64,000 nucleotides of DNA from Legionellales bacterium (GCA_027486005.1 JAIXPZ010000083.1:1192-65191); one strand, 5' to 3'; counted from the first letter of the stretch, positions 1 to 55,975 are shown. Notes: generated from the letters alone by a model not told the origin. Numbers and translations are program-made.

Positions 1-1
1 G

Positions 2-274
2 AATAGCTTGCAACCACTAAACACGTCTACCAATTATTTTGTGACACTTAACCCTAAACAACGACCACAAGAAGACTTAATTATTGATGAGCATCAATTT
101 GAGCATCCACAGTTCAGCCAGGGGGCGATAACAGCACAAAACAGTATTGAAAAGATACAAGGTGAAAATGACACCTATTATTGTGGCGCTTACTTGCGGT
201 ACGGATTTCATGAGGATGGACTTCAAAGTGCCGTTAATGTTGCGAAAAAGCTCGGCGTGGAAGTTCCATGGTAA
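2..274 (+). CDS. FAD/NAD(P)-dependent oxidoreductase (amine-oxidase/desaturase-like), C-terminal fragment; 5' end lies outside the window
   Basis: The frame is open from the window edge. The tail 'YYCGAYLRYGFHEDGLQSA' is typical of the oxidoreductase that precedes DUF1365/cfa genes. Its stop overlaps the next start (ATGGTAA). Confidence 0.75.
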   Translation, partial: NSLQPLNTSTNYFVTLNPKQRPQEDLIIDEHQFEHPQFSQGAITAQNSIEKIQGENDTYYCGAYLRYGFHEDGLQSAVNVAKKLGVEVPW

Positions 275-1053
275 TCACCGGGCATCAACTATTAAGTGCT
301 AATATTTACCATAAGCGATTAAGGCCTAAGGAAAATTCTTTCCGCTACCGCGCGTTCTATACGATATTAGACATGCAAAGGTTAAAGGAGAAAAACAACT
401 TACTTTTTTCTACCAACAAAATCTCGATATTAAGTTATCAACACCGTGATCATGGCTGTCGAGATGGAACAGACGCCACCCAATGGGCGAAAAAAATTTT
501 TAGTGAAAATGGTATTGATGTTGATTATATAAAATTAATCACCTTACCAAGAGTATTGGGTTATCTCTTTAACCCGGTGAGCTTTTGGTTGGGCTACATT
601 CAGAACGACCTGTGTGCAGTTATCTGTGAAGTTAATAACACCTTTCAACAAACACACACTTATATTTGCCATAAAGAAGACAATCAGTCTATTGCAGGAG
701 AAGATTGGTTTTGTGCGCCAAAGGAGTTTCATGTTTCACCGTTTTACCCCAGAGAAGGCAGTTATTATTTTAAATTTGATTTCAATGATGAAAAGAAAAA
801 TTATGTTATTTTAATTCACTATTATATCAATAATCAGTTAGAACTGATTACCTCTGTAACCGGAAAGGTAAAGCCGATGACTAAAAAAGGTATATTGTTC
901 GAGCTCTTTCGTTCACCTTTATTGACCTTAAAAGTGACAGCAATGATTTATTATCAAGCAGTAAAGATTTTTTTAAAGAAATCAAGATTTCACAAGTTGC
1001 CTGAGAAAAAAAACTGCCAAGTCACCGTTGCTAGAAATATTAAGAAAGTTTAA
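268..1053 (+). CDS. DUF1365 family protein
   Basis: 261 aa. The N-terminus 'IYHKRLRPKENSFRYRAFY' and its position between the FAD oxidoreductase and the CFA-synthase-like gene match the DUF1365 context. Confidence 0.8.
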   Translation: MVITGHQLLSANIYHKRLRPKENSFRYRAFYTILDMQRLKEKNNLLFSTNKISILSYQHRDHGCRDGTDATQWAKKIFSENGIDVDYIKLITLPRVLGYLFNPVSFWLGYIQNDLCAVICEVNNTFQQTHTYICHKEDNQSIAGEDWFCAPKEFHVSPFYPREGSYYFKFDFNDEKKNYVILIHYYINNQLELITSVTGKVKPMTKKGILFELFRSPLLTLKVTAMIYYQAVKIFLKKSRFHKLPEKKNCQVTVARNIKKV

Positions 1054-1121
1054 TGTTAATTAAATAGGTTATGGAAAAATATTTGATATAATCCCCTCAA
1101 TTCTATAATAGAGATCAATAT

Positions 1122-2288
1122 ATGTTTGAGAAGATTATTAAAGAGAAGCTCTTAAAATCTCTAAGAAAAATCGAGCAGGGAGAGATTCACTTAACCACGC
1201 CAGAAGGCGAGACTTTTTACTTTAAAGCGAATAATCCAGGTCTGAGTGCAGATATCACATTAAAAGATTGGCGTGTTATTGCTAATTTAAATATCAAGGG
1301 TGATATCGCTTTAGCAGAAGATTTTCGTGATGGATTCTGGGAGACTCAAAACCTCACTAATCTTATCCATTTTGGATTGGAGAATGAGAAAGTATTTCAA
1401 GGATATATAAAAGGCAGTTTTTTCTATAATTGTCTTGCTAAACTCGGCTATTTAACTCAGCGCAATACTATCAAGCAAAGCAAAAAAAATATTCATGCAC
1501 ATTATGATCTAGGCAATGATTTTTATAAGCTTTGGCTAGACGAGTCTATGACGTATTCTTCAGCTATTTATAAAAATGAGCACGAGCCTCTACAAAATGC
1601 GCAAAATCATAAGTATGATCGTATTTTGGATAAAATCTCGAATTTTGAACAGATCCTAGAGATAGGCTGCGGCTGGGGTGGTTTTGCTGAAAGAGCGATA
1701 CAAACCAAAGGCTGTACTATAAAAGGCATTACTTTATCACAGCAACAACAGAGTTATGCCAATGCTCGTTTAGAAAAATATCAAGATGCGGCAACAATTG
1801 TCATTGAAGACTATCGAAATCAAACAGGGAAATATGACGCTATTGTTTCCATCGAAATGATTGAAGCTGTTGGAAGGAAATATTGGCCTACCTATTTTAA
1901 GAAATTACAATCACTGTTAAAACCAGGCGGAAAAATATTTATTCAAAGTATCGTTATTGAAGATAGCCTTTTTAAAAATTACGTCAAAGGTACTGATTTA
2001 ATACGCACGCATATTTTTCCTGGGGGCCTATTACCAAGCAGGCAAGCGTTAAATGAACAAATTAGCAAAGCTAAGCTATGCTGCACGGATAGTTACGCTT
2101 TTGGCGCAGACTACGCAAAAACCTTGTCGCAATGGCTAGAAAATTTTACTGGGCAGGAAGAAAAACTGCTTCAACTAGGCTTTGATAAACGCTTTCAACG
2201 AATGTGGAAGTTTTATTTGGCTTCGTGTATCGCAGCGTTTAGACATAAAAAAATTGATGTCGTACAACTTGAGCTAAGCCATGTTTAA
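1122..2288 (+). CDS. cfa: Cyclopropane-fatty-acyl-phospholipid synthase family SAM-dependent methyltransferase
   Basis: 388 aa with the SAM-binding motif 'ILEIGCGWGGFA' and the CMAS-type core 'HYDLGNDFYKLWLD...MTYSSAIY'. Confidence 0.9.
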   Translation: MFEKIIKEKLLKSLRKIEQGEIHLTTPEGETFYFKANNPGLSADITLKDWRVIANLNIKGDIALAEDFRDGFWETQNLTNLIHFGLENEKVFQGYIKGSFFYNCLAKLGYLTQRNTIKQSKKNIHAHYDLGNDFYKLWLDESMTYSSAIYKNEHEPLQNAQNHKYDRILDKISNFEQILEIGCGWGGFAERAIQTKGCTIKGITLSQQQQSYANARLEKYQDAATIVIEDYRNQTGKYDAIVSIEMIEAVGRKYWPTYFKKLQSLLKPGGKIFIQSIVIEDSLFKNYVKGTDLIRTHIFPGGLLPSRQALNEQISKAKLCCTDSYAFGADYAKTLSQWLENFTGQEEKLLQLGFDKRFQRMWKFYLASCIAAFRHKKIDVVQLELSHV

Positions 2289-2826
2289 AAAAATAATTCA
2301 ATCTTTAGGGGTAATACTGATGAGCGCGTGCATATTTTCTGGTTGTTCCACTGATATCAGTTATTACAAAGATCAAAAACCCGCTTTGAATTTACAAAAT
2401 TATTTGCAAGGCAAAATTATCGGTTCTGGCATTATTAGAGATTGGCGCGGTCGCGTCACTAAACAGTTTGATTTTGTTGCAGAAGCTTCATGGAATAACA
2501 ATATCTGTACATTTAAAGAAGAGATGAGATATTACGATGGGCAAGTGGACCATCGTACTTGGACTATAAAGAAAATTAATGATCATTATTACGAAGGAGC
2601 CACAGACGATGTTATTGGTGTGGCCAAAATATTGGTTGATGGTAATGCCATGAATTGGCAATACCGGATGGATATAAAAGTCGATGATTCGACATACCGA
2701 ATAAAGTTTGATGACTGGATGTATCTGATGAATAACAATACACTTATCAATCACAACACATTTAAAAAATTTGGTATTACCGTCGGAACTCTCGTATTGT
2801 TTATGCATAAGCCCGAGGATCACTGA
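2281..2826 (+). CDS. DUF3833 family lipoprotein
   Basis: Lipobox 'IFSGCS' after a signal peptide. The start overlaps the cfa stop. 'FDDWMYLMNNNTLIN' resembles DUF3833, the usual partner of this cluster. Confidence 0.75.
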   Translation: MFKKIIQSLGVILMSACIFSGCSTDISYYKDQKPALNLQNYLQGKIIGSGIIRDWRGRVTKQFDFVAEASWNNNICTFKEEMRYYDGQVDHRTWTIKKINDHYYEGATDDVIGVAKILVDGNAMNWQYRMDIKVDDSTYRIKFDDWMYLMNNNTLINHNTFKKFGITVGTLVLFMHKPEDH

Positions 2827-2827
2827 T

Positions 2828-3595
2828 ATGGACACGAAAAGCTTGTTTTATCATAAGAACATTTGGATTATTGGTGCGAGCGACGGCATTGGAAAAGCCG
2901 TTGCAATTGCTTTGAGCAATTTAGGCGCTAATCTTGTGATCTCTGCTCGCTCACACGACAAATTGCTTGAGACCAATCGCGGGCTTAAAAATCAGGCTGT
3001 TGTCGTCGCGTTTGATGTTTCTCAACGTGAAGCGTTTTCTGTAGCCGCTCATTCCATTTTTGCTACACAGGAGATTAACTCTATTCTTTACTTTCCGGGC
3101 GTTTATGAACCTGTTGCTTTATGTCAGTTAAATAATGAAATAATTGATAGTAGTATCGATGTCAATCTTCGTTCTGTTTTTACATTACTACAATGCACAC
3201 TCCCGTATTTAAAAGAGCATTCAACGTGCCAACTGGCTGTAGCTGCTAGTGTGGCAGGGTATCAAGGTTTGCCAAATGCGCAGCCCTATTCCGCAACAAA
3301 AGCAGCGGTCATCAACTTGATAGAAAGCCTCAAATCTGAATATCCTATGTATAATATTAAGTTAATCAATCCAGGTTTTGTAAAAACCAAACTAACGGAC
3401 AAAAATAATTTTGATATGCCGGCGCTTATTTCAACCGAAAGAGCTGCAAAATACATATTGGCAGGGCTTCTTCAAAATAACTTTGAAATTCACTTCCCGA
3501 AAAAATTTACCTACATACTCAAAGTGATCAGAATGATGCCTTATAAGTATTATTTTTTACTGATAGATAAATACTTCAATCCGCTTAAAAAATAG
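2828..3595 (+). CDS. SDR family oxidoreductase
   Basis: ATG at 2828 gives 'MDTKSLFYHKNIWIIGASDGIGKAVA' (TGxxxGIG-type Rossmann motif). The catalytic 'YSATKAA' is present. The longer ORF from 2771 would overlap the upstream gene. Confidence 0.85.
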   Translation: MDTKSLFYHKNIWIIGASDGIGKAVAIALSNLGANLVISARSHDKLLETNRGLKNQAVVVAFDVSQREAFSVAAHSIFATQEINSILYFPGVYEPVALCQLNNEIIDSSIDVNLRSVFTLLQCTLPYLKEHSTCQLAVAASVAGYQGLPNAQPYSATKAAVINLIESLKSEYPMYNIKLINPGFVKTKLTDKNNFDMPALISTERAAKYILAGLLQNNFEIHFPKKFTYILKVIRMMPYKYYFLLIDKYFNPLKK

Positions 3596-3604
3596 GACGC
3601 CTAT

Positions 3605-4450
3605 ATGAACCCAATAGCGGATACTGCGATTTCACAAGTACATTTTAAATACTCTTTCTTAGTGGTGTCACTGGTTTTGATTATACATGCGCTACCGTTT
3701 TTTGCATTTTTCACGCCATTTAACCAAGCAGATGTTTGGCTTTTTTTCGTGAGTTATACTATACGTGTTTTCTCGCTTACCGCGGGCTATCATCGTTATT
3801 TTTCACATAAAGCATTTGAAACAAACCGGGTATTTCAATTTATTTTAGCCTTTTTTGCCGCATGCTCCTTACAAGGGGGCCCGCTCTGGTGGGCATCGCA
3901 TCATCGTCATCATCACCACACTTCTGACGAAGTGTCAGATGCACATAGCCCGGTTAGGTTTGGATTTTTTTATAGTCATTTTCTATGGTTTATGCAAAAA
4001 AAGCATTTAAAAGCACACTATCATTTAGTTAAAGATTTTAGTAGATTCCCTGAGTTACGCGCCTTAGAGCGCTACTGGTACCTCTTGCCGCTACCCGTGA
4101 TTGCTTTACTTTATCTGATAGGTGGATGGAACTATGTCATATGGGGGTTTTTTGTTCCTACATTGTTTGTGAATAACGCCACCTACGCAGTGAACTCCTT
4201 TGTCCATTTATACGGTAGCAGACGTTATAATACATCCGATAATAGTAGAAATAACGTGTGGGTCGCCCTACTGACCTTCGGTGAAGGTTGGCATAATAAT
4301 CACCACCGTTATGCTGGGTCTGCGAATCAAGGTTTTTGTTGGTATCAAATCGATATCACGTATTATTTTCTTTGTCTGCTATCTTATTTAAAAATTGTTA
4401 AAAATTTAAAAAAGGTGCCGGAAAAAATCCTTAAAGAAGGTGGCTATTAG
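3605..4450 (+). CDS. Membrane acyl-CoA/acyl-lipid fatty acid desaturase (di-iron, histidine-box)
   Basis: Three histidine boxes ('HRYFSH', 'HHRHHHH', 'HNNHHRY') and hydrophobic N-terminal helices. Confidence 0.9.
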   Translation: MNPIADTAISQVHFKYSFLVVSLVLIIHALPFFAFFTPFNQADVWLFFVSYTIRVFSLTAGYHRYFSHKAFETNRVFQFILAFFAACSLQGGPLWWASHHRHHHHTSDEVSDAHSPVRFGFFYSHFLWFMQKKHLKAHYHLVKDFSRFPELRALERYWYLLPLPVIALLYLIGGWNYVIWGFFVPTLFVNNATYAVNSFVHLYGSRRYNTSDNSRNNVWVALLTFGEGWHNNHHRYAGSANQGFCWYQIDITYYFLCLLSYLKIVKNLKKVPEKILKEGGY

Positions 4451-4521
4451 GTACAAATACCTCCGTTCATAGCTTCAATGCCTGCAAGAATCTGCATAAT
4501 AACTCTGTTAGTGTTTTTTTG

Positions 4522-5727
4522 CTAATCTTGATCTTTCAAAAACTGCGTAAATTTTCTACTGAGAATAACATTATTAAGTTGATCACGCACAAACAAGGTT
4601 TCATAAATAGTATCTTTAATAGATTTTGAAAACAATGTTAATAAGCGTGTTTTTTCTTCTTCCGCTAATTGATGGAAATTTTCGAGTAAAATTTGCTGGC
4701 AGGATTTTTCATAGTCGCTACGCGCTTTTTGCAATTGATCCGCTTCTGATTTTATTGGAGCCTGCTCTGAAAGATTCGTCTTTGAGATTGGCTTCTTCAT
4801 TTTTGGATTTTTATAATCTTGAACTAAAGCGCTGTGCATATAGCCGGATAAATGCTGAATAGCTTGCTTTTTATAACTTAAGGAATCTTTTACTACCGCA
4901 ATTTTTTCTTCCACATAAGCTTCGCCAAAATCGGCTAAAGCTGCTGAGGCTTGTTGCTTAGAAAACGCAAATTCATGCTGTAAAATATTTTCTACTTTCG
5001 ATTCTGAAACAATCTCTTCAAGCACTTTATTTTCTGCAGGATTAACACTAAATTTAATTGCCACAGGTTTTCGACCCACCTTTTTTAAGAGATATGCCAC
5101 ATTTAAACCGCTATATTCGTTAACTTCTTTAAGAGCGATATCAATAACTCGTTTGCGAAAGTCTTTGAAAACCGCATACTTAGTTTCATCTACGCCCATT
5201 AGTTTTCGAAAAACTGTCATATCAAACCACGGAGTCTCTTGAATATTTTGATAGCGTGCGCAATTTTCATAAAGCACCAGACCATAACTAGATTTGAAGC
5301 GTGCTTGTACTTGCATATTCAAGCGGCCATAAACTTCTGGTCGAAACAATAATTGACGCATTTTATGGCTATAGGAATAGGTACACAGCGGTCCGTCAAT
5401 ACTTGCATCGGCAATAATCGCGCTCGCGTTCCATACTCCCACACGATCCAGGCGCTCTTTGTCCACTAAATTCCATTCAATCACTGTTGAAATTAAACTC
5501 ACCAATGCTTTTTTGATAGCGTTTAATTCATTACTGTTGTACCCAATAAGATCGCACAAAGTCCGAATATGAATCTGGTGCTCATGCTTTTCAGAAAGCT
5601 CACTGTACGCATTGAAAAGTAACGCATTCGCAATTTTCCGCTGCACCAAAGAAAGCTTGTTCGCAGAATGAATGGTTGCGACATGTTTCTTCAAATCAAA
5701 ATTTTTATACGGTAATGTTGATAGCAT
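4522..5727 (-). CDS. Plasmid-type replication initiator protein (Rep_3/RepB-like)
   Basis: 401 aa. The N-terminus 'IHSANKLSLVQRKIANALLFNAY...IRTLCDLIGY...AIKKALVSLISTVIEWNL' has the winged-helix Rep_3 pattern. Iterons lie immediately upstream and the gene is divergent from parA. Confidence 0.8.
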   Translation of the reverse strand: MLSTLPYKNFDLKKHVATIHSANKLSLVQRKIANALLFNAYSELSEKHEHQIHIRTLCDLIGYNSNELNAIKKALVSLISTVIEWNLVDKERLDRVGVWNASAIIADASIDGPLCTYSYSHKMRQLLFRPEVYGRLNMQVQARFKSSYGLVLYENCARYQNIQETPWFDMTVFRKLMGVDETKYAVFKDFRKRVIDIALKEVNEYSGLNVAYLLKKVGRKPVAIKFSVNPAENKVLEEIVSESKVENILQHEFAFSKQQASAALADFGEAYVEEKIAVVKDSLSYKKQAIQHLSGYMHSALVQDYKNPKMKKPISKTNLSEQAPIKSEADQLQKARSDYEKSCQQILLENFHQLAEEEKTRLLTLFSKSIKDTIYETLFVRDQLNNVILSRKFTQFLKDQD

Positions 5728-5733
5728 TCTCTT

Positions 5734-5846
5734 TCCTGAATCTGTCCCTAATAAAACTTAAAAGACTCCTGTTAGTGTCCTTATTTATCCTGTTATTGTC
5801 ACACTCATTTCCTGTATCCGACCCAAACCACCCTGTTCATGTCCCC
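5734..5846. repeat. Iteron array (5 copies of about TCCTGTTANTGTCC) of a plasmid-type oriV, followed by an AT-rich tract to about 5945
   Basis: CCTG cores lie at 5735, 5768, 5789, 5811 and 5832, giving spacings of 33, 21, 22 and 21 bp. The array sits directly upstream of rep. Confidence 0.65.
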
Positions 5847-5968
5847 GTTTAACGATAAAAATCATTAAAAATCAAAGTGTTATAGTTCCTAAATATTAAA
5901 ACAAGTTATAAACTAATAAACATGTTTGTATTTTTTCTATCGTATCTTCTTCTTAACTTCAACTCAAG

Positions 5969-5996
5969 CTTATGTTACTCTTATTCATAACATAAG
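5969..5996. promoter_or_regulatory. 9-bp inverted repeat (CTTATGTTA-N10-TAACATAAG) just upstream of the parA RBS; candidate par operator or centromere-like site
   Basis: Perfect 9-bp arms read from the sequence, about 17 bp upstream of the GTG start of parA. Confidence 0.35.
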
Positions 5997-6013
5997 TCAT
6001 AAAGGAGCGAGAG

Positions 6014-6886
6014 GTGGCTAAAATCCTCGTGTGTGCTACAAATAAAGGTGGCGAAGGTAAAACAACCACCAGTATCAATCTTGCTGAATATGCGTCTCTT
6101 ATTTTAAAAAAACGCGTTTTGCTGATAGATTTAGATCCACAGGCGAATTTATCAGGTCGTTATATTGCAATGGATTATGATCCAGCCTACAAAAGTGGCA
6201 AGATTCCTCCTATTCATGCTGATTACGACGCAGAGCAAGATGAACAATGGGATGGACGTAGCAGTATTGCCAATATTTTTTATGGGGAAGAAGCTGTCCC
6301 CTACCCTACAAGTATAGAACATTTAGAATTACTTCCTGCACATTCTCAAAAGCTTTTAGAAGCAGAGGCTGTAACAAAAAACGAAGTGCTAGAAAAAGTA
6401 CATATGCAATTGAAATATTTTGTTGAATTGCCAGACTTACAAAAAGGCTACGACTTAGTGATTATTGATACTCCTCCTTCAAAAGGCCCACTGACAATAG
6501 CAGCAATCAAAGCTGCAACACATTTGATAATACCTGCTCAAATGGAACAGTTTTCGATCGAGGGGATCTATGGAATGTTACAACTTTGGAAACAAGAGTC
6601 TTATAAGCGTTCCAAAGCAACGCCAATTACCCTAGTAGGCATTTTACCTAACAAATACCGTGATATTAATCTGCATAGAGAATTTTTAGAAGAGCTGTGC
6701 ATGATGCCCGGAATAGGGAGCTATGTACTGCCTAATCCTATAAAAGTTCGGGCAGTTTATTCTGAGATTTTGGTGGAGGGTGCTCGTCCCAAAAGCATTT
6801 TTGAGTTAAAAAAATCTCATATTGCTAGAGAAGAGTGCGAAACCATTTGCCGAGAAATTTTAAATAAGGTGCTTGATCATGGCTAA
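6014..6886 (+). CDS. parA: ParA family partition ATPase
   Basis: Deviant Walker A 'NKGGEGKTTTS' and Walker B 'LVIIDTPP'. GTG start is preceded by AAAGGAG. Confidence 0.9.
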   Translation: MAKILVCATNKGGEGKTTTSINLAEYASLILKKRVLLIDLDPQANLSGRYIAMDYDPAYKSGKIPPIHADYDAEQDEQWDGRSSIANIFYGEEAVPYPTSIEHLELLPAHSQKLLEAEAVTKNEVLEKVHMQLKYFVELPDLQKGYDLVIIDTPPSKGPLTIAAIKAATHLIIPAQMEQFSIEGIYGMLQLWKQESYKRSKATPITLVGILPNKYRDINLHREFLEELCMMPGIGSYVLPNPIKVRAVYSEILVEGARPKSIFELKKSHIAREECETICREILNKVLDHG

Positions 6887-7859
6887 ACGAAAATCCTTTT
6901 CCATCAACTCTTCTTTGTCCAAAAGTTTAGAGGAAACGGTTCAAGCTGCCCATGATTTCTCTGGTCAACTGTTTGTTGAAGTGATTCCTGTTGATAGATT
7001 GGAACTTGATCCAGAAAATCCGCGTGACTTACATCTCAGCTTTCAAGATATTCAAGAAGGTATTGCTGCAGATGATCCTTTAGCCGATACAAAGAAGAGC
7101 GAATTACTCAATCTTCAATCGCTCTCTAAATCGATTGTTGCCCAAGGATTAATTAATCCGATTGTAGTGTATAAGTATCAAGATAAATATCGCTTGATTG
7201 CAGGTGAACGACGAACATTGGCGTCTATTTTAGCTGGGAAAAATCAGATTCAGGCCCGCATTTTTGAAGATAAACCTAGCCCACTTAACCGTGTCGTCCT
7301 GCAATGGATGGAAAATAACGAGCGTGAAGACTTAACTTTAGCGGAGCGTGTCAATAATATCCGCTCAATTGTTAAAATTTATAGCAATCAACATGAGGCA
7401 CATGCAGAGCGAGTGACTGCCGCTGAGCTGAGTGATTTGACCGGAATGTCAGTTTCTCAAGCCGCGCAATATAGATTGGTATTACAGGGCACTGAAGCTC
7501 TTTTACTTGCTATCAAAGAAAATAAAGTAAGTAACTTGGATAAAGCTGCTTTTATTGTAAAAGCTTCATTTCAAGACCAGGATGCTCTGATTAGTTTATG
7601 TTCTCAAGGGGCTTCTTTGAGAGAATTAAAAGCTGCTAGTCATAAGTTGTTTATTCAGAAACCCGACAAAGTGTTGGCTACTTCAAAGATATTTTCTGCA
7701 ACAGTACGGGGTGAAAAGACGATGCGTATTATTTTGGATGCTTTATACAGAGAAGCAATTTTGCCCTCCACTATGCAAAATCATACGACACTTGACGGTA
7801 ATGCGCTGGTACGCCATTTTCACGAGGTGCTTGAACGCATAGAAAGAGGTGCTGCATAG
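6879..7859 (+). CDS. parB: ParB/Spo0J-like partition protein
   Basis: ParB N-terminal box 'GLINPIVVYKYQDKYRLIAGERR' and HTH 'TAAELSDLTGMSVSQAAQY'. The ATG at 6879 overlaps the parA stop. Confidence 0.85.
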   Translation: MAKRKSFSINSSLSKSLEETVQAAHDFSGQLFVEVIPVDRLELDPENPRDLHLSFQDIQEGIAADDPLADTKKSELLNLQSLSKSIVAQGLINPIVVYKYQDKYRLIAGERRTLASILAGKNQIQARIFEDKPSPLNRVVLQWMENNEREDLTLAERVNNIRSIVKIYSNQHEAHAERVTAAELSDLTGMSVSQAAQYRLVLQGTEALLLAIKENKVSNLDKAAFIVKASFQDQDALISLCSQGASLRELKAASHKLFIQKPDKVLATSKIFSATVRGEKTMRIILDALYREAILPSTMQNHTTLDGNALVRHFHEVLERIERGAA

Positions 7860-8203
7860 TGTTTAGCGGGTTAAAAACAAAGATTACTTTTGTGGTTCCT
7901 GCTGCTTTACAAATGGAGCTACGTGAACGTATCCCCCGCGACGGCTATGGCTTGAGAGGTAAAAGCAAATGGGTATCAGAAGCGATTGAATCTTTGTTGG
8001 TTTTAGAGAATTTTGCACGATTAGTTCAATATAGCGAAGAAATGCATGGTTTTGAAAAAGTAGAAACTGTTGTAGTGAGCACTGAGTTAAAGAAGCAAAT
8101 TGATAAGGCGATTCTTGAGGTACGTAAGTACTATCCAGGATCTGAAGGTGTTCAAAGTTCTATTGTTCGAACTGCAATTATGCAGCGGCTTCTGCGTAGT
8201 TAA
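7859..8203 (+). CDS. Small protein with two tandem ribbon-helix-helix-like repeats (third gene of the par operon)
   Basis: GTG overlaps the parB stop. Two strand-helix-helix patterns are present: 'KITFVVPAALQMELRERI..KSKWVSEAIESLL' and 'ETVVVSTELKKQIDKAILEV..VQSSIVRTAIMQRLL'. The fold is assigned from the pattern only. Confidence 0.5.
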   Translation: MFSGLKTKITFVVPAALQMELRERIPRDGYGLRGKSKWVSEAIESLLVLENFARLVQYSEEMHGFEKVETVVVSTELKKQIDKAILEVRKYYPGSEGVQSSIVRTAIMQRLLRS

Positions 8204-8225
8204 GTATCCTGTAGGTGTCCCTGTT

Positions 8226-8367: not shown

Positions 8368-9144
8368 CTACACTTTCCCAGGTTTATGGCAATAATTCAC
8401 CGAAGCTTGGTCTGTTGGAAAAATCACAAGTTCAGCAATGGAAACATGAGGCGGGCGAGTAACGCAATAAACAATTGCGTCGGCAACGTCTGTTGCAGCA
8501 AGTGGCGTGAATTCCTCATAAAATTTATCTGCTTTTTCCTTATCTTTCCAACGTACTGTACTGAATTCAGTGTTAACTGCTCCAGGCGCAACATCACTTA
8601 TTCTTATTTTTGTACCAAGGAGATCAAGGCGCAGCGACTTACTTAAGGCTCGTACAGCATGTTTAGTAGCAGAATAAATATTGCCCATAGGATAATGATC
8701 GTGTCCTGCGACAGAGCTTACATTAATAATATGGCCACTATTTCGTATCAACATGCCTTTGAGGACCGTCTGGGTAACATATAAAAGTCCACTGATATTG
8801 GTTTGAATCATGGTATCCCAGTTATCGAGATTGCCCTGCTGTAATGGCAGGCTATCTAAAGCCAGGCCAGCATTGTTGATTAGAATATCAATAGATTGCC
8901 ATTCTTCAGGGAGTGTATTTACAGCATGAATAACATCCTGTTTATTTCTAACATCGAGTTCAATATCAAGGACTTTTATGGAGTATTGTTGGGTTAATTG
9001 CATGGCAAGGGATTGCAACCTGTCTTTTCTTCGTGCTGTAAGAATTAAGTGACATCCCAACTGGGCAAAATGCTCTGCACATGCAGCACCAATGCCACTC
9101 GAAGCCCCAGTGATAAAAACAATTTTGCTTTTCAATGTATCCAT
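8368..9144 (-). CDS. SDR family NAD(P)-dependent oxidoreductase (YdfG-like)
   Basis: 'ITGASSGIGAACA', 'NNAG' and 'YSATKHA' motifs; 258 aa. Confidence 0.9.
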   Translation of the reverse strand: MDTLKSKIVFITGASSGIGAACAEHFAQLGCHLILTARRKDRLQSLAMQLTQQYSIKVLDIELDVRNKQDVIHAVNTLPEEWQSIDILINNAGLALDSLPLQQGNLDNWDTMIQTNISGLLYVTQTVLKGMLIRNSGHIINVSSVAGHDHYPMGNIYSATKHAVRALSKSLRLDLLGTKIRISDVAPGAVNTEFSTVRWKDKEKADKFYEEFTPLAATDVADAIVYCVTRPPHVSIAELVIFPTDQASVNYCHKPGKV

Positions 9145-9317
9145 TGTTGAATCCTCTACCTCTATTTAGTCGCGCGATATTAAAGGGTTATGTAAATTGT
9201 TTCTAGTTAAAAGTGATTGATGGGACAGATGCAGGATAATTTTATTGATTATATTTTGACCTGTTTTCTGGTAACCGGAAAATAGATTTAATGGGCCTAT
9301 TGTAATCTGCTAAAAAA

Positions 9318-9465: not shown

Positions 9466-9589
9466 CGTCTTTAAAATGCAACAAGCAAAATAGCGTTAAA
9501 TTATAATGACACCAACAGAAATATGCAGTTTAATCCATCCCTTATGTCAAACATGTCCTGATAACAGGGACGAATACAGGAAAGATAAT

Positions 9590-10234
9590 ATGACCAACAA
9601 AAATCCAATGTTCTACGTGAAACTATTTATGACCACCTTTATTGTTCTGGGGTTCTTATTTACTATTAACAAATCTGTGGCTAACCCGTCTGATTCTGCG
9701 CCAACAGCTGCGGTTTCCTCACAAAAAGAGCCGGTTCTGATTATTCATACGGCACAAGGCCAGATTAAAGTTGAGCTTGATGTAGAAAATGCTCCTGCAA
9801 CTGCACAGAACTTCTTAAGCTATGCGAAAGAGGGTTACTATAATGGCACTTTGTTTCATCGTGTCATTGATGGGTTTATGATTCAGGGTGGTGGCTTTTT
9901 GCCAGGAATGAAAGAAAAGCCAGTCAGCATGCCACCAATTAAAAATGAGGGAAGCAAGTGTGGTAAGAATAAACGCGGCACCTTAGCGATGGCAAGAACG
10001 TCAGATCCTCATTCAGCCACTTCACAGTTCTTTATCAATGTTACGGATAATGACTTTTTGGACTTTCAGTCAGAGACTTCACAGGGCTGGGGATATTGTG
10101 CTTTTGGCCATGTGATTGAAGGCATGGATGTCGTTGATAAGATTAAAGCTGTACCAACTACTATCGTTGGTGGATATCAAGATGTTCCTGTGAACGATGT
10201 TTCGATCGATCGTGTTGATATTATTAAAAATTAA
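9590..10234 (+). CDS. ppiA: Periplasmic peptidyl-prolyl cis-trans isomerase A (cyclophilin type)
   Basis: The start at 9590 gives the signal peptide '[24 protein letters not shown]'. Cyclophilin core '[14 protein letters not shown]...GTLAMAR'. Confidence 0.9.
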
Positions 10235-10235
10235 A

Positions 10236-10270
10236 GCATTTAAGAGGGCAGCTGCCGGTAGCCCTCTTTC
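10236..10270 (+). repeat. 35-nt hairpin element, copy 2 (GCATTTAAGAGGGCAGCTGCCGGTAGCCCTCTTTC)
   Basis: 32/35 identical to copy 1, including the non-stem 5' flank. It starts 2 nt after the ppiA stop. Confidence 0.5.
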
Positions 10271-10321
10271 GCAAAAAGTGTATTGTGTGCATAATGCCCC
10301 GTTCATTTATAGGAGAAACTA

Positions 10322-10822
10322 ATGATTATTATTCACACTACTCAAGGTCCTATTAAGGTCACACTTGATTTTGAAAATACCCCTGTTACTGCGCAGAATT
10401 TTTTGAACTATGCTAAAGAAGATTTTTATAATGGTACTTTGTTTCATCGAGTTATTAATGGATTCATGATTCAAGGAGGAGGGCTGCTGCCTGGGATGGA
10501 AGACAAAAAATCGGGCACACCTTCTATTAAAAATGAAGCCAATAAAGGCGGTAAGAATAAGAAAGGGACTTTAGCAATGGCTAGAACCTATGACCCTCAT
10601 TCTGCAACGGCACAGTTCTTTATCAATGTCGCGGATAATGACTTTTTGGACTTTAAGTCAGAGACAACGCAAGGCTGGGGATACTGTGTTTTTGGTCATG
10701 TTGTCGAAGGCATGGATATTGTTGATAAGATTAAAGTCGTGCCAACAACGAGCCGTCGTGGGCATCAAGATGTTCCTGTAGAGGATATCTTGATCGAGCG
10801 CGTTGAAGTTCTTGAATCTTAA
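10322..10822 (+). CDS. ppiB: Cytoplasmic peptidyl-prolyl cis-trans isomerase B (cyclophilin type)
   Basis: 166 aa with no signal peptide. '[14 protein letters not shown]' motif; paralogous to ppiA. Confidence 0.92.
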
Positions 10823-11030: not shown

Positions 11031-12158
11031 ATGAGACCAAGAGATTTTTTTCCTTTAGGTAAAGCTTATGGGGAAGCATTTTGTAACAGAGAAAAAGAAG
11101 CGGAAAAGCTTTTGGGGAATGTCCAAAACGGCAAGCATACCTTTCTTGTTGCGCCGCGACGTTATGGAAAATCTAGCCTTTGTGAAAAAGTGTTAGAAAA
11201 AAGCACGTTACCTTGGACAAAAGTTGATTTTCATATGGCGATCACTGAAAGCGATGTTGAGAGTTTTATTGTTGGTGGTGCTAATGATCTGATAGGAAAA
11301 TCTATCAGCCAAGTAGATAAATTATCTTCTGTTATTAAAACAGTTGTTAAAAAATTAAAACCAAAATTTGATATCAGTGCGGGGCCACTACGGCTTGAGC
11401 TTGAAATTTCATCCGGTAGTTCGCCCGCTGAAAATGTTGCTGAAGCATTGTTGCTTATTGATCGCCTACTGATAGAGAAAAATAAACAAGCAGTGATACA
11501 TTTTGATGAGTTTCAAGAAGTTGGGAATATTACCGAAGGGCGAGGCGTAGAAGGCGCTATTCGACATGCAGCACAAGAAACGAAAAATTTAGCGATTATC
11601 TTTTCAGGCAGCAACCCTCACCTTATAAAAAACATGTTTGAAAACGAAAGTAGACCACTTTATAAGTTATGTAAAAAATTACCTTTGCCCAGAATTTCTG
11701 AGGAACATTATAATCATCATTTGAATAAAGCATCACTTGCAATGTGGGGTAAAGAACTACCAGCGAGCTGTTTTGAGCGAATTATGACACTGACTGAAAG
11801 ACATCCTTATTATGTTAATGCACTATGTGATGAAGTTTGGTCAGAGACGCAGACTGTACCGACTGTTGATCATGTAAATGCATGTTGGGAATATGTGATA
11901 GAAGGCGAGCGTAGTGATCTTATTAAAGACTTTCTCAATCTTTCTGATAATCAACGAAAAGTATTAATTCAGATAGCTAATTTTGGCGGTGAAAATATTT
12001 ATGCAAATAGTTCTTCAAAGCAAATGGATGTTCCTGTCAGCTCACTAAGAAGTGCAATAGAGGCAGTGCTTGAAAAGGACTTTATTGAAAAAATCGGTAC
12101 ACATTATTCCTTAGTAGTTCCAGTGTATAGGTGGTTATTGCGGCATCAGCAAGAGTAG
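11031..12158 (+). CDS. AAA-type ATP-binding protein (archaeal-ATPase/ATPase_2-like with a C-terminal winged-helix-like region)
   Basis: Walker A 'VAPRRYGKSSL' and Walker B 'AVIHFDEFQE'; 375 aa. The family is assigned from motifs only. Confidence 0.7.
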   Translation: MRPRDFFPLGKAYGEAFCNREKEAEKLLGNVQNGKHTFLVAPRRYGKSSLCEKVLEKSTLPWTKVDFHMAITESDVESFIVGGANDLIGKSISQVDKLSSVIKTVVKKLKPKFDISAGPLRLELEISSGSSPAENVAEALLLIDRLLIEKNKQAVIHFDEFQEVGNITEGRGVEGAIRHAAQETKNLAIIFSGSNPHLIKNMFENESRPLYKLCKKLPLPRISEEHYNHHLNKASLAMWGKELPASCFERIMTLTERHPYYVNALCDEVWSETQTVPTVDHVNACWEYVIEGERSDLIKDFLNLSDNQRKVLIQIANFGGENIYANSSSKQMDVPVSSLRSAIEAVLEKDFIEKIGTHYSLVVPVYRWLLRHQQE

Positions 12159-21576: not shown

Positions 21577-21945
21577 CTAGCCTGCCAATACATAAAATTG
21601 CTCGAAAATGGATTGATTTTCACCACTTTTACCAAGCGTTACGTTTTCTGGTAATCCATGCAAGCCAATAGTTTTGACAAAAAAGGCTTTGGCTGAAGGC
21701 TTATCTCTATTTTCAGATAATATAAAATCAACCGTATCTCCAAATTTGTCCGCCGCGCGATACAAATAATACCACACACTTTTTATTTTGATGTAGGTCT
21801 CGTCCATACGCCAACGGGAATTAATTTTTTTATTGTAATTTTTTCTAAATGCTTTTTCTAACAAAGGCGCGCAACGAATGACCCAGCGATTAAGTGTAGA
21901 GTGGCCGACATTATACAAGTGGCCCGAAAACGCACACCCGTTCAC
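21577..21945 (-). pseudogene. IS6-family (IS26-like) DDE transposase remnant, truncated at both ends
   Basis: 'STLNRWV...RWRMDETYIKIKSVWYYLYRAADKFGDTVDFILSENRDKPSAKAFF' matches the central IS6 transposase core. Only 122 aa remain, with no proper N-terminus or C-terminal catalytic E region. Confidence 0.75.
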
Positions 21946-21993: not shown

Positions 21994-22890
21994 TCAACTC
22001 TGGCTAACCTGATGTTTTTTTGTTGAGATGGGGTTAGTTTCAGAAACTGAAAAATTATTAAAATAATTACGTTGCTCAGAGGTAAATGCCCATTGATCAG
22101 GATCACTACCGCCAGGGAAAGCATCTATCTGCGCATAGGAGATGTGTAAACTAGAATCGACTCTGAGCTCTATATTTTGTAAATCTAAATGAAGATCGCC
22201 ATTTACCCACACGCGCACATAACCATCTGCTTTGCCTATGGTATTCAGCTTGACCTCTTGTGTTAGCGTTGTCCATTGACCTGGGGTAAAGTAATAAGGA
22301 GTATCTAAGTCAATATAGTCTCCGCAATCTTCTTTTTTATCAGGATTATACACATACAGATAGAGTTTCAGCTGCTCGTTCTCGTTGCGCCACATGTAGC
22401 GGGTGCTAAATCCTTTAGTGTTACTTACACAACCTGATTCATCCTCGTCTGAAGCTAAGCCGGGCAGCTTGCCGCCGCCTTTTTCAGGAGCATCAAAGCC
22501 AGCGGGAAATAGTACATCGTATTGAAAAAATAGACTGTCATAATTTTCTTGTAATGGCGCTGGAAAAGCGACACCAGCAGAGCCTCCTACTTCACCCTTG
22601 GGGAAAACTACCTTGAACAAATGATCCTCATTGGCGCTGCTCAATCGATTATGGCTATTTTTTTTCTTGCGTTTAGGTCCCTTAGCTAAATTAGACGCAT
22701 CACTAATGTAGAGATTATCTTTCTCTGATGAGTACATGCTAGTCAACCAATCTACTTTAAATTCTTCTTTTTGATACTGACCAATAGTGTTTTTATCAAA
22801 ATTCACGGGCTGCTTCACTGTTAGCGCATAATTATAAGAGCTACTAACGAACAGTAAAGATCCAAGAAGACATTGATATAATGTTTTCAT
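21994..22890 (-). CDS. Secreted polysaccharide-lyase-like protein (PL14/PF14099-like)
   Basis: Signal peptide 'MKTLYQCLLGSLLFVSSS'. 'GGGKLPGL...GFSTRYMWR...LYLYVY...VWVNG...FPGG' resembles the Polysacc_lyase fold family as I remember it. Confidence 0.55.
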   Translation of the reverse strand: MKTLYQCLLGSLLFVSSSYNYALTVKQPVNFDKNTIGQYQKEEFKVDWLTSMYSSEKDNLYISDASNLAKGPKRKKKNSHNRLSSANEDHLFKVVFPKGEVGGSAGVAFPAPLQENYDSLFFQYDVLFPAGFDAPEKGGGKLPGLASDEDESGCVSNTKGFSTRYMWRNENEQLKLYLYVYNPDKKEDCGDYIDLDTPYYFTPGQWTTLTQEVKLNTIGKADGYVRVWVNGDLHLDLQNIELRVDSSLHISYAQIDAFPGGSDPDQWAFTSEQRNYFNNFSVSETNPISTKKHQVSQS

Positions 22891-25007: not shown

Positions 25008-26333
25008 GTGGAAAAAACACCTCACAAATTAGGCATTATAGCACTGACCGCATTAGTGACCGGCAACATGATCGGCTCGGGAATTTTTTTGTTACCTGCG
25101 GACCTTTCTCATATAGGCAGTATTAGCATCGTCTCTTGGTTAATTACTGGCTCGGGCGCTTTATTGCTTGCATTTGTTTTCGCTAATTTCAGTATGCTTC
25201 TACCTAAAGTGGGCGGCCCATATGCTTATGTAACCGCAGAACTAGGACAATTTCTAGGTTTTCAGACGGCTTATTGTTATTGGATTGCTGCGTGGGTCGG
25301 TAATGCAGCGATTGCAATTGCTTTGGCTGGCTATTTATCAGTTTTTTTCCCTGTGCTGACTCAGCCATGGCCCGCATGTTTTTGTGCGCTAGGTTTTTTG
25401 TGGCTTTTAACATTATTGAATATTACTAGCATGAAGGGGATAGGGTTTTTTCAAATCGTAACAACGTTTCTGAAGCTACTTCCAATATTGTTTATTGGTA
25501 CGATTGGTTGGGCATATATTCATCCTGCTTATTTTACAGAAGCAATAAATGTTACCGTGCCGCATCAATCCAATTTTTCTGCGATTAACTATGCAGTTGC
25601 TCTAACCTTTTGGTCATTTATTGGTTTAGAGTCAGCGACTTTACCCGTAGATTCTGTAAGTAATCCTAAGCGCAATATTCCTTTAGCGACATTGCTAGGT
25701 ACTGGTATTGCTGCTGTAGTTTATATCTTAAGTTCATCAGCGGTGTTGGGCATCGTGCCGCTAGAGCAACTTCAACAAAGTAGCGCTCCTTTTGCATTAG
25801 CTGCCAATATCGTTGCTGGACCTATTGGTGGATATGTTATTGCATTGGGCGCGATTATTTCTTGCGTGGGTTGTTTAAGTGGTTGGATACTGATGCAAGG
25901 ACAAATCGCTATGGCTGCAGCAAATGATGGCGTTTTTCCTAAACGATTTTCTAAACGAAATAAATCAGGTATTCCTGTTTTTGCTGTTGTAATCACTTCT
26001 CTACTTATTTCTATTTTATTGCTTACAACAGTATCAAAATCACTGGTTGAACAGTTTGAGTTTATTATTTTAATCGCTGTTTTTGCTGTCTTAATACCTT
26101 ATTTTTATACGGTACTTGCCTATTGGATAAAACAACGAAACGCTCCTTTCACACGAAAAATAGCCATAAAACTTGTTGTTGCACTGCTTGCTGGTATTTA
26201 TGTTGTTTGGGCTATAATTGGGTCAGGACAAAAAATTATTGCATATGGTACAGTACTGTTATTGGGGAGTGTATTTTTTTATATTCCGATTTTAATAAGG
26301 AACAAGCGCGATGTCGACCAACTTAAAAGGTAG
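25008..26333 (+). CDS. arcD: APC-superfamily basic amino acid antiporter, probable arginine:ornithine antiporter
   Basis: 'GNMIGSGIFLLPADL' motif; 441 aa, about 12 TM. It lies directly upstream of and overlaps arcB. The substrate is inferred from operon context. Confidence 0.75.
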   Translation: MEKTPHKLGIIALTALVTGNMIGSGIFLLPADLSHIGSISIVSWLITGSGALLLAFVFANFSMLLPKVGGPYAYVTAELGQFLGFQTAYCYWIAAWVGNAAIAIALAGYLSVFFPVLTQPWPACFCALGFLWLLTLLNITSMKGIGFFQIVTTFLKLLPILFIGTIGWAYIHPAYFTEAINVTVPHQSNFSAINYAVALTFWSFIGLESATLPVDSVSNPKRNIPLATLLGTGIAAVVYILSSSAVLGIVPLEQLQQSSAPFALAANIVAGPIGGYVIALGAIISCVGCLSGWILMQGQIAMAAANDGVFPKRFSKRNKSGIPVFAVVITSLLISILLLTTVSKSLVEQFEFIILIAVFAVLIPYFYTVLAYWIKQRNAPFTRKIAIKLVVALLAGIYVVWAIIGSGQKIIAYGTVLLLGSVFFYIPILIRNKRDVDQLKR

Positions 26334-27306
26334 AAGTTTTTTAACACTACGTGATTTTTCATCATTAGAAATAGAATATCTTTTGCAGCTTTCACATGAT
26401 TTGAAAGAGAAAAAGCGTACCGGGCATTCAAATGAGCTATTAAAAAATAAGAGCATTGTGTTGATTTTTGATAAACCCTCAACACGAACTCGCTGTGCAT
26501 TTGAAGTGGCAACTTATGATGAAGGCGGTCATGTCACTTTTTTAGAAAATAGTCATATGGGGAAAAAAGAATCCCTCGAAGACACAGCTAAAGTATTGGG
26601 CCGCATGTACGATGGCATCCAATATCGTGGCTACTCACATAGCGATGCGGAAACTCTTGCATTGCATGCAGGAGTTCCAGTGTGGAATGGTTTAACCGAT
26701 CAGTACCATCCTACGCAAATTTTAGCGGATCTGTTAACGATTCGTGAACATATTGCTAAACCACTGAATAAAGTAAAACTGGTTTATGTGGGTGATGCTC
26801 GTAACAACATGGGCAATTCTTTATTGATCGGTGCTGCAAAAATGGGTATGCATTTTATGGGTCTTGCGCCAAAAGCACTATGGCCTGAAAAAAGTTTTAT
26901 TGATGGTTTGGATGCTATTGCTCGTGAAACGAATGCAACGTTGGAGTATTCTGAAGATATTGCGACAGCCGTCAAAGATGCCGATGTTATTTATACTGAC
27001 GTATGGTTTTCTATGGGCGAAGAGGATCAAATGGCAGCACGCATTGAACAGCTTAAAGCTTATCAAGTGACAATGGATATGATACGTAAAACCCAAAACT
27101 CAGATGTAGTATTTATGCATTGTTTACCCGCTTATCATGATACTAATACTAAAGTAGGAAAAGAGATATTTGAAAAGTTCGGCTTGAGTGAGCTAGAAGT
27201 CACTGATGAAGTGTTTCGCAGCCGTCATTCTATTGTGTTTGATCAAGCAGAAAATCGTTTACATACAATCAAAGCAGTTATTGTTGCCACGATTGGTCAT
27301 GTTTAA
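26311..27306 (+). CDS. arcB: Ornithine carbamoyltransferase (catabolic context)
   Basis: 'STRTRCAFE', 'HPTQILAD' and 'FMHCLPA' motifs. Confidence 0.93.
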   Translation: MSTNLKGRSFLTLRDFSSLEIEYLLQLSHDLKEKKRTGHSNELLKNKSIVLIFDKPSTRTRCAFEVATYDEGGHVTFLENSHMGKKESLEDTAKVLGRMYDGIQYRGYSHSDAETLALHAGVPVWNGLTDQYHPTQILADLLTIREHIAKPLNKVKLVYVGDARNNMGNSLLIGAAKMGMHFMGLAPKALWPEKSFIDGLDAIARETNATLEYSEDIATAVKDADVIYTDVWFSMGEEDQMAARIEQLKAYQVTMDMIRKTQNSDVVFMHCLPAYHDTNTKVGKEIFEKFGLSELEVTDEVFRSRHSIVFDQAENRLHTIKAVIVATIGHV

Positions 27307-27333
27307 ATTAGTATTAGTAAATAGGGGGTTTTT

Positions 27334-28539: not shown

Positions 28540-28547
28540 TAGGTATC

Positions 28548-29429
28548 ATGCGTATTGTAATTGCTATTGGTGGAAATGCACTGCTAAAAAAGGGCGAGGC
28601 GCAAACTGCTGAGACACTAAAGCGCAATTGTGACATAGTGGCAAAAGATATTGCACAATTAGCGATTGAACATGAAATTATTTTGGTACATGGTAATGGC
28701 CCGCAAGTTGGATTACTTGCATTACAGTCGAATGATCCTTTCGATATACTCGATGCGGAAAGTCAGGGGATGATTGGTTATGTATTGCAGCAATCACTTG
28801 ATAATGTATTACAAAATAAAAAAATAGCAGTGACTGTACTAACACAAGTAAAAGTGGATGCGACTGATCCCGCGTTTAGTTCTGCTACCAAACCGATAGG
28901 ACTTTACTATAACGAAGAAGAAAAAATTAAATTGGAACAAGAGCGCGGCTGGAGTTTTGTAAAACGCGAACAACAATTTCGACGCGTTGTACCTTCGCCT
29001 AAGCCTAAAAAAATTGTAGAACTCAATGCGATTAAATTATTGGCGGAATCTGCTTATGTTGTTATCGCTGCCGGTGGCGGCGGCATTCCGTGCGTACAAG
29101 CAGAGAAAGGTTTACAGGGCATTGAAGCAGTGATAGATAAAGATTTAACAGCTGCGCGTTTAGCATTAGATTTACAAGCTGATAAACTTATTATTCTCAC
29201 CGATGTGGAGGGTGTTTATCGAGAGTGGGGGAATGAAAATCAAGCCCTTGCTTCTAGTGCTCACGTTAATGAGCTTAAGTCGCAAGATTTTGAATCCGGC
29301 TCCATGGCGCCTAAAATCCAAGCGGCGTGTCAATTCGCTGAAAGTAGCGGTCATTCAGCTGCAATTGGGCATCTCGAAAACTTATTAGCAATTGTTGAAA
29401 ATCGGTCCGGCACGAGTATTTTTGTTTGA
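28548..29429 (+). CDS. arcC: Carbamate kinase
   Basis: 'IAIGGNAL...VHGNGPQVG...GGGGIP...VIDKDL' motifs. Confidence 0.93.
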   Translation: MRIVIAIGGNALLKKGEAQTAETLKRNCDIVAKDIAQLAIEHEIILVHGNGPQVGLLALQSNDPFDILDAESQGMIGYVLQQSLDNVLQNKKIAVTVLTQVKVDATDPAFSSATKPIGLYYNEEEKIKLEQERGWSFVKREQQFRRVVPSPKPKKIVELNAIKLLAESAYVVIAAGGGGIPCVQAEKGLQGIEAVIDKDLTAARLALDLQADKLIILTDVEGVYREWGNENQALASSAHVNELKSQDFESGSMAPKIQAACQFAESSGHSAAIGHLENLLAIVENRSGTSIFV

Positions 29430-35902: not shown

Positions 35903-35979
35903 TGGTGCGCCCAGAGAGATTCGAACTCCCGACCACTTGGTTCGAAGCCAAGTACTCTATCCAGCTGAGCTATGGGCGC
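35903..35979 (-). tRNA. tRNA-Arg (anticodon UCG)
   Basis: The reverse complement folds as a cloverleaf: acceptor GCGCCCA/TGGGCGC, D-arm GCTCAGCTGGATAGAGT, anticodon stem CTTGG/CCAAG with loop CTTCGAA, T-loop TTCGAAT, and an encoded CCA. Confidence 0.93.
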
Positions 35980-55769: not shown

Positions 55770-55785
55770 CCAACAAGGAGAAGCC

Positions 55786-55947: not shown

Positions 55948-55975
55948 CTACATAATTTAATATAAGGAGAACACA

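Follow-up and report, generated by a model that had tools for sequence, protein, structure and literature searches.

The stretch of DNA considered here, 64,000 nucleotides from a Legionellales bacterium (GCA_027486005.1, JAIXPZ010000083.1:1192-65191; called the window throughout), contains a replication and partition module of the kind known from iteron plasmids. The source is an uncultured gammaproteobacterium whose nearest cultured relative is Aquicella (Legionellales, Coxiellaceae). The module consists of a replication initiator gene (rep), a divergently oriented operon of parA, parB and a third, small gene (here termed X), and a spacer between them that harbours short phased repeats (iterons), an AT-rich tract and an inverted repeat. 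Its principal features, with positions in the window in base pairs (bp), are the following.

4522-5727, minus strand: rep, Rep_3-family iteron-binding replication initiator of 401 amino acids with winged-helix domains WH1 and WH2 (Pfam)
5734-5748, minus strand: iteron 1, GGGACAGATTCAGGA, directly upstream of the rep start codon
5767-5845, minus strand: iterons 2-5 (starts 5767, 5788, 5810 and 5831), phased by 21-22 bp; predicted Rep-binding array of the origin, oriV
5851-5940: AT-rich tract, 82% AT against 61% for the window
5946-5996, plus strand: parA-proximal block CTTCTTCTTAACTTCAACTCAAGC with the 9-bp inverted repeat CTTATGTTA/TAACATAAG
6014-6886, plus strand: parA, Walker-type partition ATPase of 290 amino acids with a KGGEGKTT motif (Pfam AAA_31 and CbiA)
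6873-7859, plus strand: parB, ParB/Spo0J-family centromere-binding protein of 328 amino acids (Pfam ParB_N, TIGR00180)
7859-8203, plus strand: X, single-chain tandem ribbon-helix-helix (RHH) protein of 114 amino acids, third gene of the par operon (AF2 model, Foldseek)

The product of rep contains both winged-helix domains of Rep_3 initiators: Rep3_N (WH1) scores 60.8 bits against a Pfam cut-off of 22.4, and Rep3_C (WH2) 58.1 bits against a cut-off of 21.1. The genes parA and parB overlap at 6873-6886 and form one operon, in which a deviant Walker-A ParA is followed by a ParB with a ParB_N domain; this is the layout of type I ParABS systems. The parB product scores 61.9 with TIGR00180 (cut-off 58.45), and its true start is probably the ATG at 6879.

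A preliminary description, made from the sequence, had proposed a complete iteron-plasmid-type rep/par module among core genes, and every part that it described was recovered in place. This applies to the Rep_3-like initiator on the minus strand, whose family membership was upheld by the profile search that could have overturned it, to parA and parB, which diverge from rep from position 6014 onward and are matched by Pfam and NCBIfam models, and to the five phased iterons, the AT-rich tract and the 9-bp inverted repeat between rep and parA.

Architecture of the origin region

From rep to parA, the spacer comprises an iteron at the start of rep, four phased iterons, the 90-bp AT tract, a conserved block and the inverted repeat. 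The iteron core is GGGACnnnnnCAGGA, with five copies in this spacer. When the whole window was searched with the pattern GGGACNNNNNCAGGA, allowing at most one mismatch, ten matches were found against 0.86 expected, and no shuffled sequence reached ten. Iteron 1 is spaced 33 bp from the array of iterons 2-5 and is a probable site of Rep autorepression, as its place before the rep start codon suggests. Its position is kept in several related loci (numbered with an L; here L063, L009, L004, L003, L010 and L065). In relatives, the iteron core GGGAC..CAGGA is retained while the spacers drift.

The AT-rich tract at 5851-5940 is probably the DNA-unwinding element; all close relatives have an AT-rich block at the same place. 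The two arms of the inverted repeat (5969-5977 and 5988-5996) match exactly. The block next to parA is almost unchanged across the close clade and is unique in the window; the segment 5946-5996 is a candidate par promoter/operator or centromere. The same origin architecture is common to seven relatives and is retained at 68-89% Rep identity. Searches for clusters of DnaA boxes returned none anywhere, and matches to the canonical chromosomal parS, TGTTTCACGTGAAACA, are no more frequent than chance would allow, both in the window and in its close relatives.

Outlying iterons and flanking genes

Three further, perfect iterons, which count among the ten matches, lie beyond the span covered by the preliminary description, at 8207-8221, 9222-9236 and 9567-9581. 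They are interspersed with host-type genes on the par side. These features, together with those at the other end of the module, are listed below.

1-4450, plus strand: cyclopropane-fatty-acid synthase/desaturase operon (Pfam CMAS, FA_desaturase)
8207-8221, minus strand: iteron 6, perfect, GGGACACCTACAGGA, directly after the X stop codon
8233-8257, plus strand: GC-rich hairpin, terminator-like end of the par operon; second copy at 10243-10267
8368-9144, minus strand: short-chain dehydrogenase (SDR) gene (Pfam adh_short)
9222-9236, plus strand: iteron 7, perfect, upstream of the SDR gene
9567-9581, plus strand: iteron 8, perfect, 8 bp upstream of the probable ppiA start (ATG 9590)
9590-10822, plus strand: ppiA and ppiB cyclophilin genes (Pfam Pro_isomerase)

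Counterparts of the outlying iterons occur in the same three places in L004 (5307, 3747 and 3424) and L065 (7397, 7091 and 6098), the Rep proteins of which are only 71% and 68% identical to that of the window. In L065, the copy at 6098-6112 lies directly upstream of the gene for the peptidyl-prolyl isomerase (PPIase). Because the outlying iterons keep their positions in these two loci, the functional unit reaches to about 9.6 kb. Rep may regulate the host-type SDR and PPIase genes via these sites, or the sites may serve copy-number control.

Among the homologues of Rep (n = 668), a collinear gene order is commoner than the divergent one. Collinear loci carry two iteron clusters with the same core motif: upstream of parA the repeats are spaced by 21-22 bp, and upstream of rep by 34 bp. 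The single iteron that follows X in the window appears to be what is left of the second cluster of these collinear loci.

The 25-nucleotide GC-rich hairpin has exactly two copies in the window, which bracket the SDR-ppiA segment. The SDR gene has an 83% identical orthologue at the same position in L004 and a homologue there in L065, and a PPIase gene occupies the same position in L065. The two cyclophilin genes are tandem duplicates, 73% identical (9740-10039 compared with 10328-10627). Further along, the window encodes an ATPase_2/AAA_14 protein (11031-12158), homologues of which (36-52% identity) are found next to or near Rep in three loci (L009 3196-4317, L017 1983-3074 and L038 10231-11331); a desaturase homologue is found near Rep in L044. 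The recurrence of these ATPase and desaturase genes near Rep suggests a shared pool of module-associated cargo genes.

Conservation of the module and its surroundings

The ratio of non-synonymous to synonymous substitution rates (dN/dS) of the module genes is 0.03-0.09 overall. For Rep it is 0.067, at a dS of about 1, in comparison with the 89% identical Rep of L063; for ParA, which is 85-91% identical in close relatives, it is 0.03-0.05. The spacer and outlying iterons, rep, parA, parB and X are all intact at a dS of at least 1. No integrase or recombinase was found among the open reading frames (ORFs) of the first 13 kb (1-13 kb), nor do direct repeats resembling attachment (att) sites bracket the module.

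Gene order is conserved on both sides. On the par side, the order X-SDR-PPIase is found in the window, in L004 (SDR) and in L065. On the rep side, L063, L004 and L065 share genes for a Spo0J-type ParB, (DUF3301), a thioredoxin-like protein, SpoU, MlaA and ComF. In L063, whose Rep is 89% identical, the Spo0J-type parB abuts rep directly. A 48.8-kb contig from the Joint Genome Institute (JGI) with the gene set of the window has a two-component system and the cyclopropane-fatty-acid synthase/desaturase operon between rep and the Spo0J-parB block. The operon at 1-4450 is therefore an insertion, since the JGI contig places it between rep and this ancestral block, which adjoins rep in L063.

Both junctions of the module, rep-desaturase and parB-parA-rep, recur in separate Logan assemblies, and the whole left arm is present in the JGI contig. 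Logan contigs with identical proteins measure 2-5 kb and lengthen the window contig by 1-2 kb at either end; the runs SRR16126900-903 contain identical sequence. In total, about 82 kb are known around the module. The largest contigs with relatives reach 300-373 kb (e.g. JARLJO010000030.1), and one of them extends for about 165 kb to either side of the module.

The Spo0J-type ParB (ParB_N, HTH_ParB and ParB_C domains) has no adjacent parA and is linked to Rep across the clade, often preceded by DUF3301. It is located at 1622-2825 in L063, 13805-14984 in L004, 12138-12965 in L065 and 10001-10798 in L076, and, as judged from matching contig sizes, is found on the same contig as Rep for Rep identities as low as 52%. 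Its 57% identical orthologue on the Aquicella main chromosome is an orphan, beside what appears by eye to be a tRNA gene. As a marker of an old oriC this ParB was considered and rejected: the Aquicella orthologue lies mid-arm, at a place with no skew switch, and gives no evidence for an origin region.

Strand skew around the module

Strand skew was assessed as the G/C skew at third codon positions (GC3 skew), read on one strand; related loci were oriented with rep on the plus strand, the module itself was excluded, and flanks of 10 kb were compared. This measure replaced the raw GC skew of the flanks because the raw comparison is confounded by gene orientation.

Between 8.3 and 64 kb of the window (53 ORFs), the mean GC3 skew is +0.17 for genes on the plus strand and +0.10 for those on the minus strand. 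As both gene orientations are positive, the plus strand is the leading strand throughout this arm. The skew of rep is -0.21. The five inserted genes in the 4.5 kb on the rep side have a mean of -0.01, which is 3.7 standard errors below the right-arm and 1.8 standard errors above the opposite-arm expectation. The cumulative GC skew, which the preliminary description had singled out as a check, has its minimum in the window at about 5-7 kb; the leftmost 4 kb do not follow with the opposite sign that was expected of them.

Across related loci, negative values prevail on the left (22 of 24 flanks) and positive values on the right (24 of 32). Of the 21 non-redundant loci that have both flanks, 19 show a higher skew on the right than on the left (one-sided sign test, ~1.1e-4). 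Examples are L004 (-0.09/+0.15) and L065 (-0.18/+0.20); the rep side of L063, at +0.15, has the expected sign. The switch is not an artefact of transcription, because genes in the flanks are not arranged so as to point away from the module (e.g. L005). A control locus on the Aquicella main chromosome, which has the orthologue of the Spo0J-type parB and no module, is uniformly negative on both sides, with no switch. Homologues of dnaA, dnaN, gyrB, recF, mnmG, rsmG and atp genes were sought in the 853 kb of fetched loci and none was found; the switch can therefore not be credited to a neighbouring canonical oriC.

In sum, the module is not a decaying insert; it is ancient, conserved in position, under strong purifying selection and located at an origin-type skew switch.

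The third partition gene

The 114-residue product of X has no match in Pfam or NCBIfam. An AlphaFold model computed with 48 homologues (predicted local distance difference test, pLDDT, 88; predicted template-modelling score, pTM, 0.81) contains two strand-helix-helix (βαα) units. A model from the single sequence, with a pLDDT of 47, was discarded. The best folds found in the PDB with Foldseek are chains of the F-plasmid relaxosome (probability 0.99-1.0, TM-score 0.5-0.6), VirC2 and DndE, with weak E-values of about 0.05 or higher. The relaxosome chains are unnamed in the output and are taken here to be TraY; all of these matches are presumably single-chain tandem RHH proteins. The label ‘tandem RHH’, which X had already carried in the preliminary description, is thus supported by the two βαα units of the model and by the tandem-RHH nature of the best folds. 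Compared with PDB sequences, the X profile gives a weak match to the RHH domain of NikR (E = 0.12).

In total, 685 homologues of X were detected; the 120 listed have no Pfam domain and are all named ‘hypothetical protein’. X adjoins parB in about 50 fetched loci. Homologues are present on plasmids of Aquicella and Legionella and on plasmids of 186-417 kb in Methylomonas, Xanthomonas (including Xanthomonas citri), Thiodictyon and Manganitrophus; none was detected on Coxiella plasmids. X would accordingly represent an unannotated tandem-RHH family that regularly accompanies ParAB as a third component on large plasmids in several proteobacterial groups.

Core genes and other cargo

The products of hemL, hemJ, gpsA, secB, typA, dksA, ttcA, virB4 and virB11 and the ligase domain of birA pass curated NCBIfam cut-offs, and a tRNA-Arg(TCG) gene is located at 35903-35979. 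The earlier statement that hemL, gpsA, secB, typA, birA and tRNA-Arg share a molecule with the module is borne out. So is the statement that no integrase, transposase or att-like repeat flanks it, the nearest such element being the IS6-type fragment at 21577-21945. In related species, hemL, gpsA, secB, typA and similar genes are generally regarded as chromosomal. From the module through the housekeeping stretch, the GC content stays uniform, at 0.36-0.43. Genes for ribosomal proteins, aminoacyl-tRNA synthetases and the replisome were not seen in the approximately 82 kb around the module or in the annotated flanks of relatives; one 20-kb stretch of Aquicella chromosome holds hisS, der, bamB and secA. 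From 52552 to 61148 lies a cluster for VirB4, a VirB5-like protein, VirB6, VirB8, VirB9, VirB10 and VirB11, with a GC content of 0.34-0.38; neither VirD4 nor a relaxase was found within the window.

The remainder of the window is, on reading of the translations, largely accessory, with resistance-nodulation-division (RND) efflux genes and a two-component system. An apparent arginine deiminase operon at 25008-29429 encodes an amino-acid permease/antiporter, ornithine carbamoyltransferase, arginine deiminase and carbamate kinase, again as judged from translations only. The IS6/IS240-family transposase fragment at 21577-21945 is truncated and lies by a polysaccharide lyase 14 gene (21994-22890). 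A 466-residue protein encoded at 49545-50945 apparently contains, by eye, two tandem deoxynucleoside-kinase-like domains.

Proposed origin of a chromid or essential megaplasmid

The module is a genuine Legionellales plasmid replicon, because the same genes are found on Aquicella plasmids and because the replication region of the Coxiella plasmid QpH1 drives a shuttle vector. In its present setting it is best understood, with a probability of roughly 0.55, as the working origin and partition system of a large low-copy replicon that carries core genes. This replicon is called a chromid or megaplasmid because the core genes are on the same molecule as a plasmid-type origin. For it we infer a firing origin, copy-number control and a function for X, along with a separate main chromosome in the same cell.

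By analogy with the Rep_3 family, Rep monomers would attach to the four phased iterons and melt the neighbouring tract of 82% AT, from which replication would then proceed bidirectionally. Rep bound at iteron 1 would repress its own gene. By titration of Rep or by pairing with the origin (‘handcuffing’), the three outlying iterons could keep the copy number low. ParA and ParB would segregate the copies of the replicon. X is predicted to be a sequence-specific DNA binder whose most plausible role is repression of the par operon through the inverted repeat, and it may contribute to marking the centromere as well.

Several observations weigh against a working origin on a separate replicon. No DnaA box (TTATCCACA, at most one mismatch) is present between 4169 and 9000; many Rep_3 origins have one, and the box is common, not universal. 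A repeated centromere was likewise not identified, the sole candidate being the single conserved inverted repeat at 5969-5996. The skew switch in the window strain rests on rep itself and on the closest relative, L063; the rep-side skew is flat (about zero, not of opposite sign), which is attributed to the recent insertion. One related locus, L041 (Ga0207150_1011), is alone in having a reversed polarity (+0.10 left, -0.07 right), which may reflect a recent inversion or an inactive copy, and two related loci have no skew polarity. Finally, skew is a record of history: it indicates that forks have long started at the module, not that they do so at present.

In one alternative, an ancient integration, a plasmid of Aquicella/Legionella type would have entered the main chromosome of an ancestor by the Spo0J-parB block, and the module would persist there as a silent insert or as an extra origin beside oriC. 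This is unlikely, yet it accommodates the chromosome-like flanks, the conserved synteny around the module, the rep-side flank without opposite skew in the window and the 57% orthologue of the neighbouring Spo0J-type ParB on the Aquicella main chromosome; integrated plasmid sequences in Coxiella provide a precedent (PMC10098735). A silent insert, however, would neither coincide with an origin-type skew switch in 19 of 21 loci nor have preserved rep, parA, parB, X and all eight iterons at a dS of at least 1, and the module has no integrase, att or insertion-sequence borders. As for an active second origin, bacterial chromosomes seldom have two that fire, and such arrangements are mostly unstable. 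More doubtful still is a replacement of the origin, whereby the main and only chromosome would be replicated by the Rep/iteron origin and segregated by ParAB-X instead of DnaA/oriC; the clade-wide form of this idea, which would extend the replacement to the Aquicella-related Legionellales and make the linked Spo0J-type parB a remnant of the old origin-proximal region, is held to be just as improbable. The skew switch at the module, the essential genes on the molecule, the relatives on contigs of up to 373 kb, the tight linkage of the Spo0J-type ParB to Rep across the clade and the lack of dnaA-linked genes nearby all speak for such a replacement. What tells against it is a low prior, as we know of no natural precedent in Proteobacteria for origin replacement by a plasmid replicon, together with the absence, noted above, of ribosomal-protein, aminoacyl-tRNA-synthetase and replisome genes from about 82 kb and the flanks of relatives, and the fact that in Aquicella the module runs ordinary plasmids of 77-92 kb.

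Two further explanations carry very little weight. Legionella has episomal islands of the pLP45 kind, and the preliminary description had suggested that the module drives such an excisable island or integrative and conjugative element, including the VirB genes. The location of the VirB4-VirB11 cluster (52.5-61.1 kb) in DNA of lower GC content would be in keeping with this, but the window has no integrase, relaxase or att-like repeat, the 44 kb between module and VirB genes are filled with hemL, hemJ, gpsA, secB, typA, birA, dksA and ttcA, and synteny on either side of the module extends to relatives with 68-89% Rep identity; the suggestion is highly improbable and was dropped. Since the source is a 67.5-kb metagenomic contig, a chimera of assembly or binning, with a plasmid fragment joined to chromosomal sequence, also had to be considered. 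It is the least credible explanation, and is excluded because both module junctions recur in independent assemblies; in addition, the X-SDR-PPIase order recurs in L004 and L065, and the junctions are not marked by any shift in GC content. Of the three initial explanations, a chromid or megaplasmid is therefore the best supported, an integrated and intact plasmid would be possible only in an unusual form, and an excisable island is not upheld.

Implications

The customary picture of Legionellales is one of a single chromosome accompanied by plasmids, and a literature search found no report of chromids in this order. If the module is the origin of a chromid or essential megaplasmid, it would represent a plasmid domesticated in intracellular bacteria and, to our knowledge, the first chromid-like replicon in the order. 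For metagenomics, a practical consequence would be that binning may wrongly discard contigs with plasmid replication genes even where these contain essential genes. In addition, rep, oriV and parAB-X form a compact cassette, relatives of which work as shuttle vectors in Coxiella; it could aid the genetics of little-studied Legionellales.

Comparison with known replicons

The DNA of positions 1-25000 of the window has no match in PLSDB. Matches to TypA and HemL in this database were set aside as mislabelled chromosome fragments without synteny to the window (e.g. Legionella adelaidensis ‘plasmid 24’). At the protein level, the closest plasmid-borne Reps are those of Aquicella lusitana plasmid 4 (47.6% identity), Coxiella QpH1 (RepA; 45% over 75% of the length) and Legionella longbeachae (41%).

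Two plasmids of Aquicella lusitana are the nearest systems. Plasmid 3 of strain SGT-39 (NZ_LR699116, 92 kb) has, like the window, rep divergent from parA-parB-X, whereas plasmid 4 (NZ_LR699117, 77 kb) shares the four genes in the collinear order parA-parB-X-rep. X of the window is 54% identical to its counterpart on plasmid 4 and 32% to that on plasmid 3. In the 15-25 kb stretches inspected, these plasmids differ in carrying accessory genes, toxin-antitoxin systems, transposases and group II introns; the window replicon, in contrast, carries hemL, gpsA, secB, birA, typA and similar genes, and its skew is uniform over at least 56 kb of one arm. Group II intron reverse transcriptase genes are found between X and rep and elsewhere on plasmids 3 and 4 (L062 2276-3529 and 6572-7801; L079 7330-8583), and one intron protein is identical on both. 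The four genes are likewise present on the Legionella longbeachae plasmids NZ_CP045304 and NZ_CP020895 (74-108 kb), where Rep is 41% and X 39-41% identical to the window proteins, and X is again next to parB.

Classical low-copy iteron replicons such as P1, F, RK2 and pSC101 have extra control iterons away from the origin. They resemble the window module in having a Rep_3-type WH1-WH2 initiator, phased iterons of about 22 bp by an AT-rich region and an iteron over the rep promoter. The window differs from them in the lack of a DnaA box in its origin, in the placement of its outlying iterons before the host-type genes SDR and ppiA, and in its third par gene.

The Coxiella burnetii plasmids QpH1, QpRS and QpDV (cbuA0036-0039a: parB ... 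repA) have a related RepA and come from the same bacterial order. The replication region of QpH1 supports a shuttle vector in Coxiella, and some Coxiella strains have integrated plasmid sequences (PMC10098735). QpH1 differs from the window replicon as a 37-kb virulence plasmid that is not a carrier of core metabolism, and the integrated sequences of Coxiella are described as remnants of plasmids, not as origins.

Vibrio chromosome 2 is the textbook chromid. Like the window, it and the Rep_3 secondary replicons and chromids combine a plasmid-derived origin and their own ParAB with core genes; the Rep of the window is unrelated to the Vibrio initiator RctB. Secondary replicons of Rep_3 type are known in Gammaproteobacteria: in one survey, 30 of 404 large secondary replicons had such an initiator, and Aquicella is among the genera for which it lists replicons of 350 kb or more (PMC10272867).

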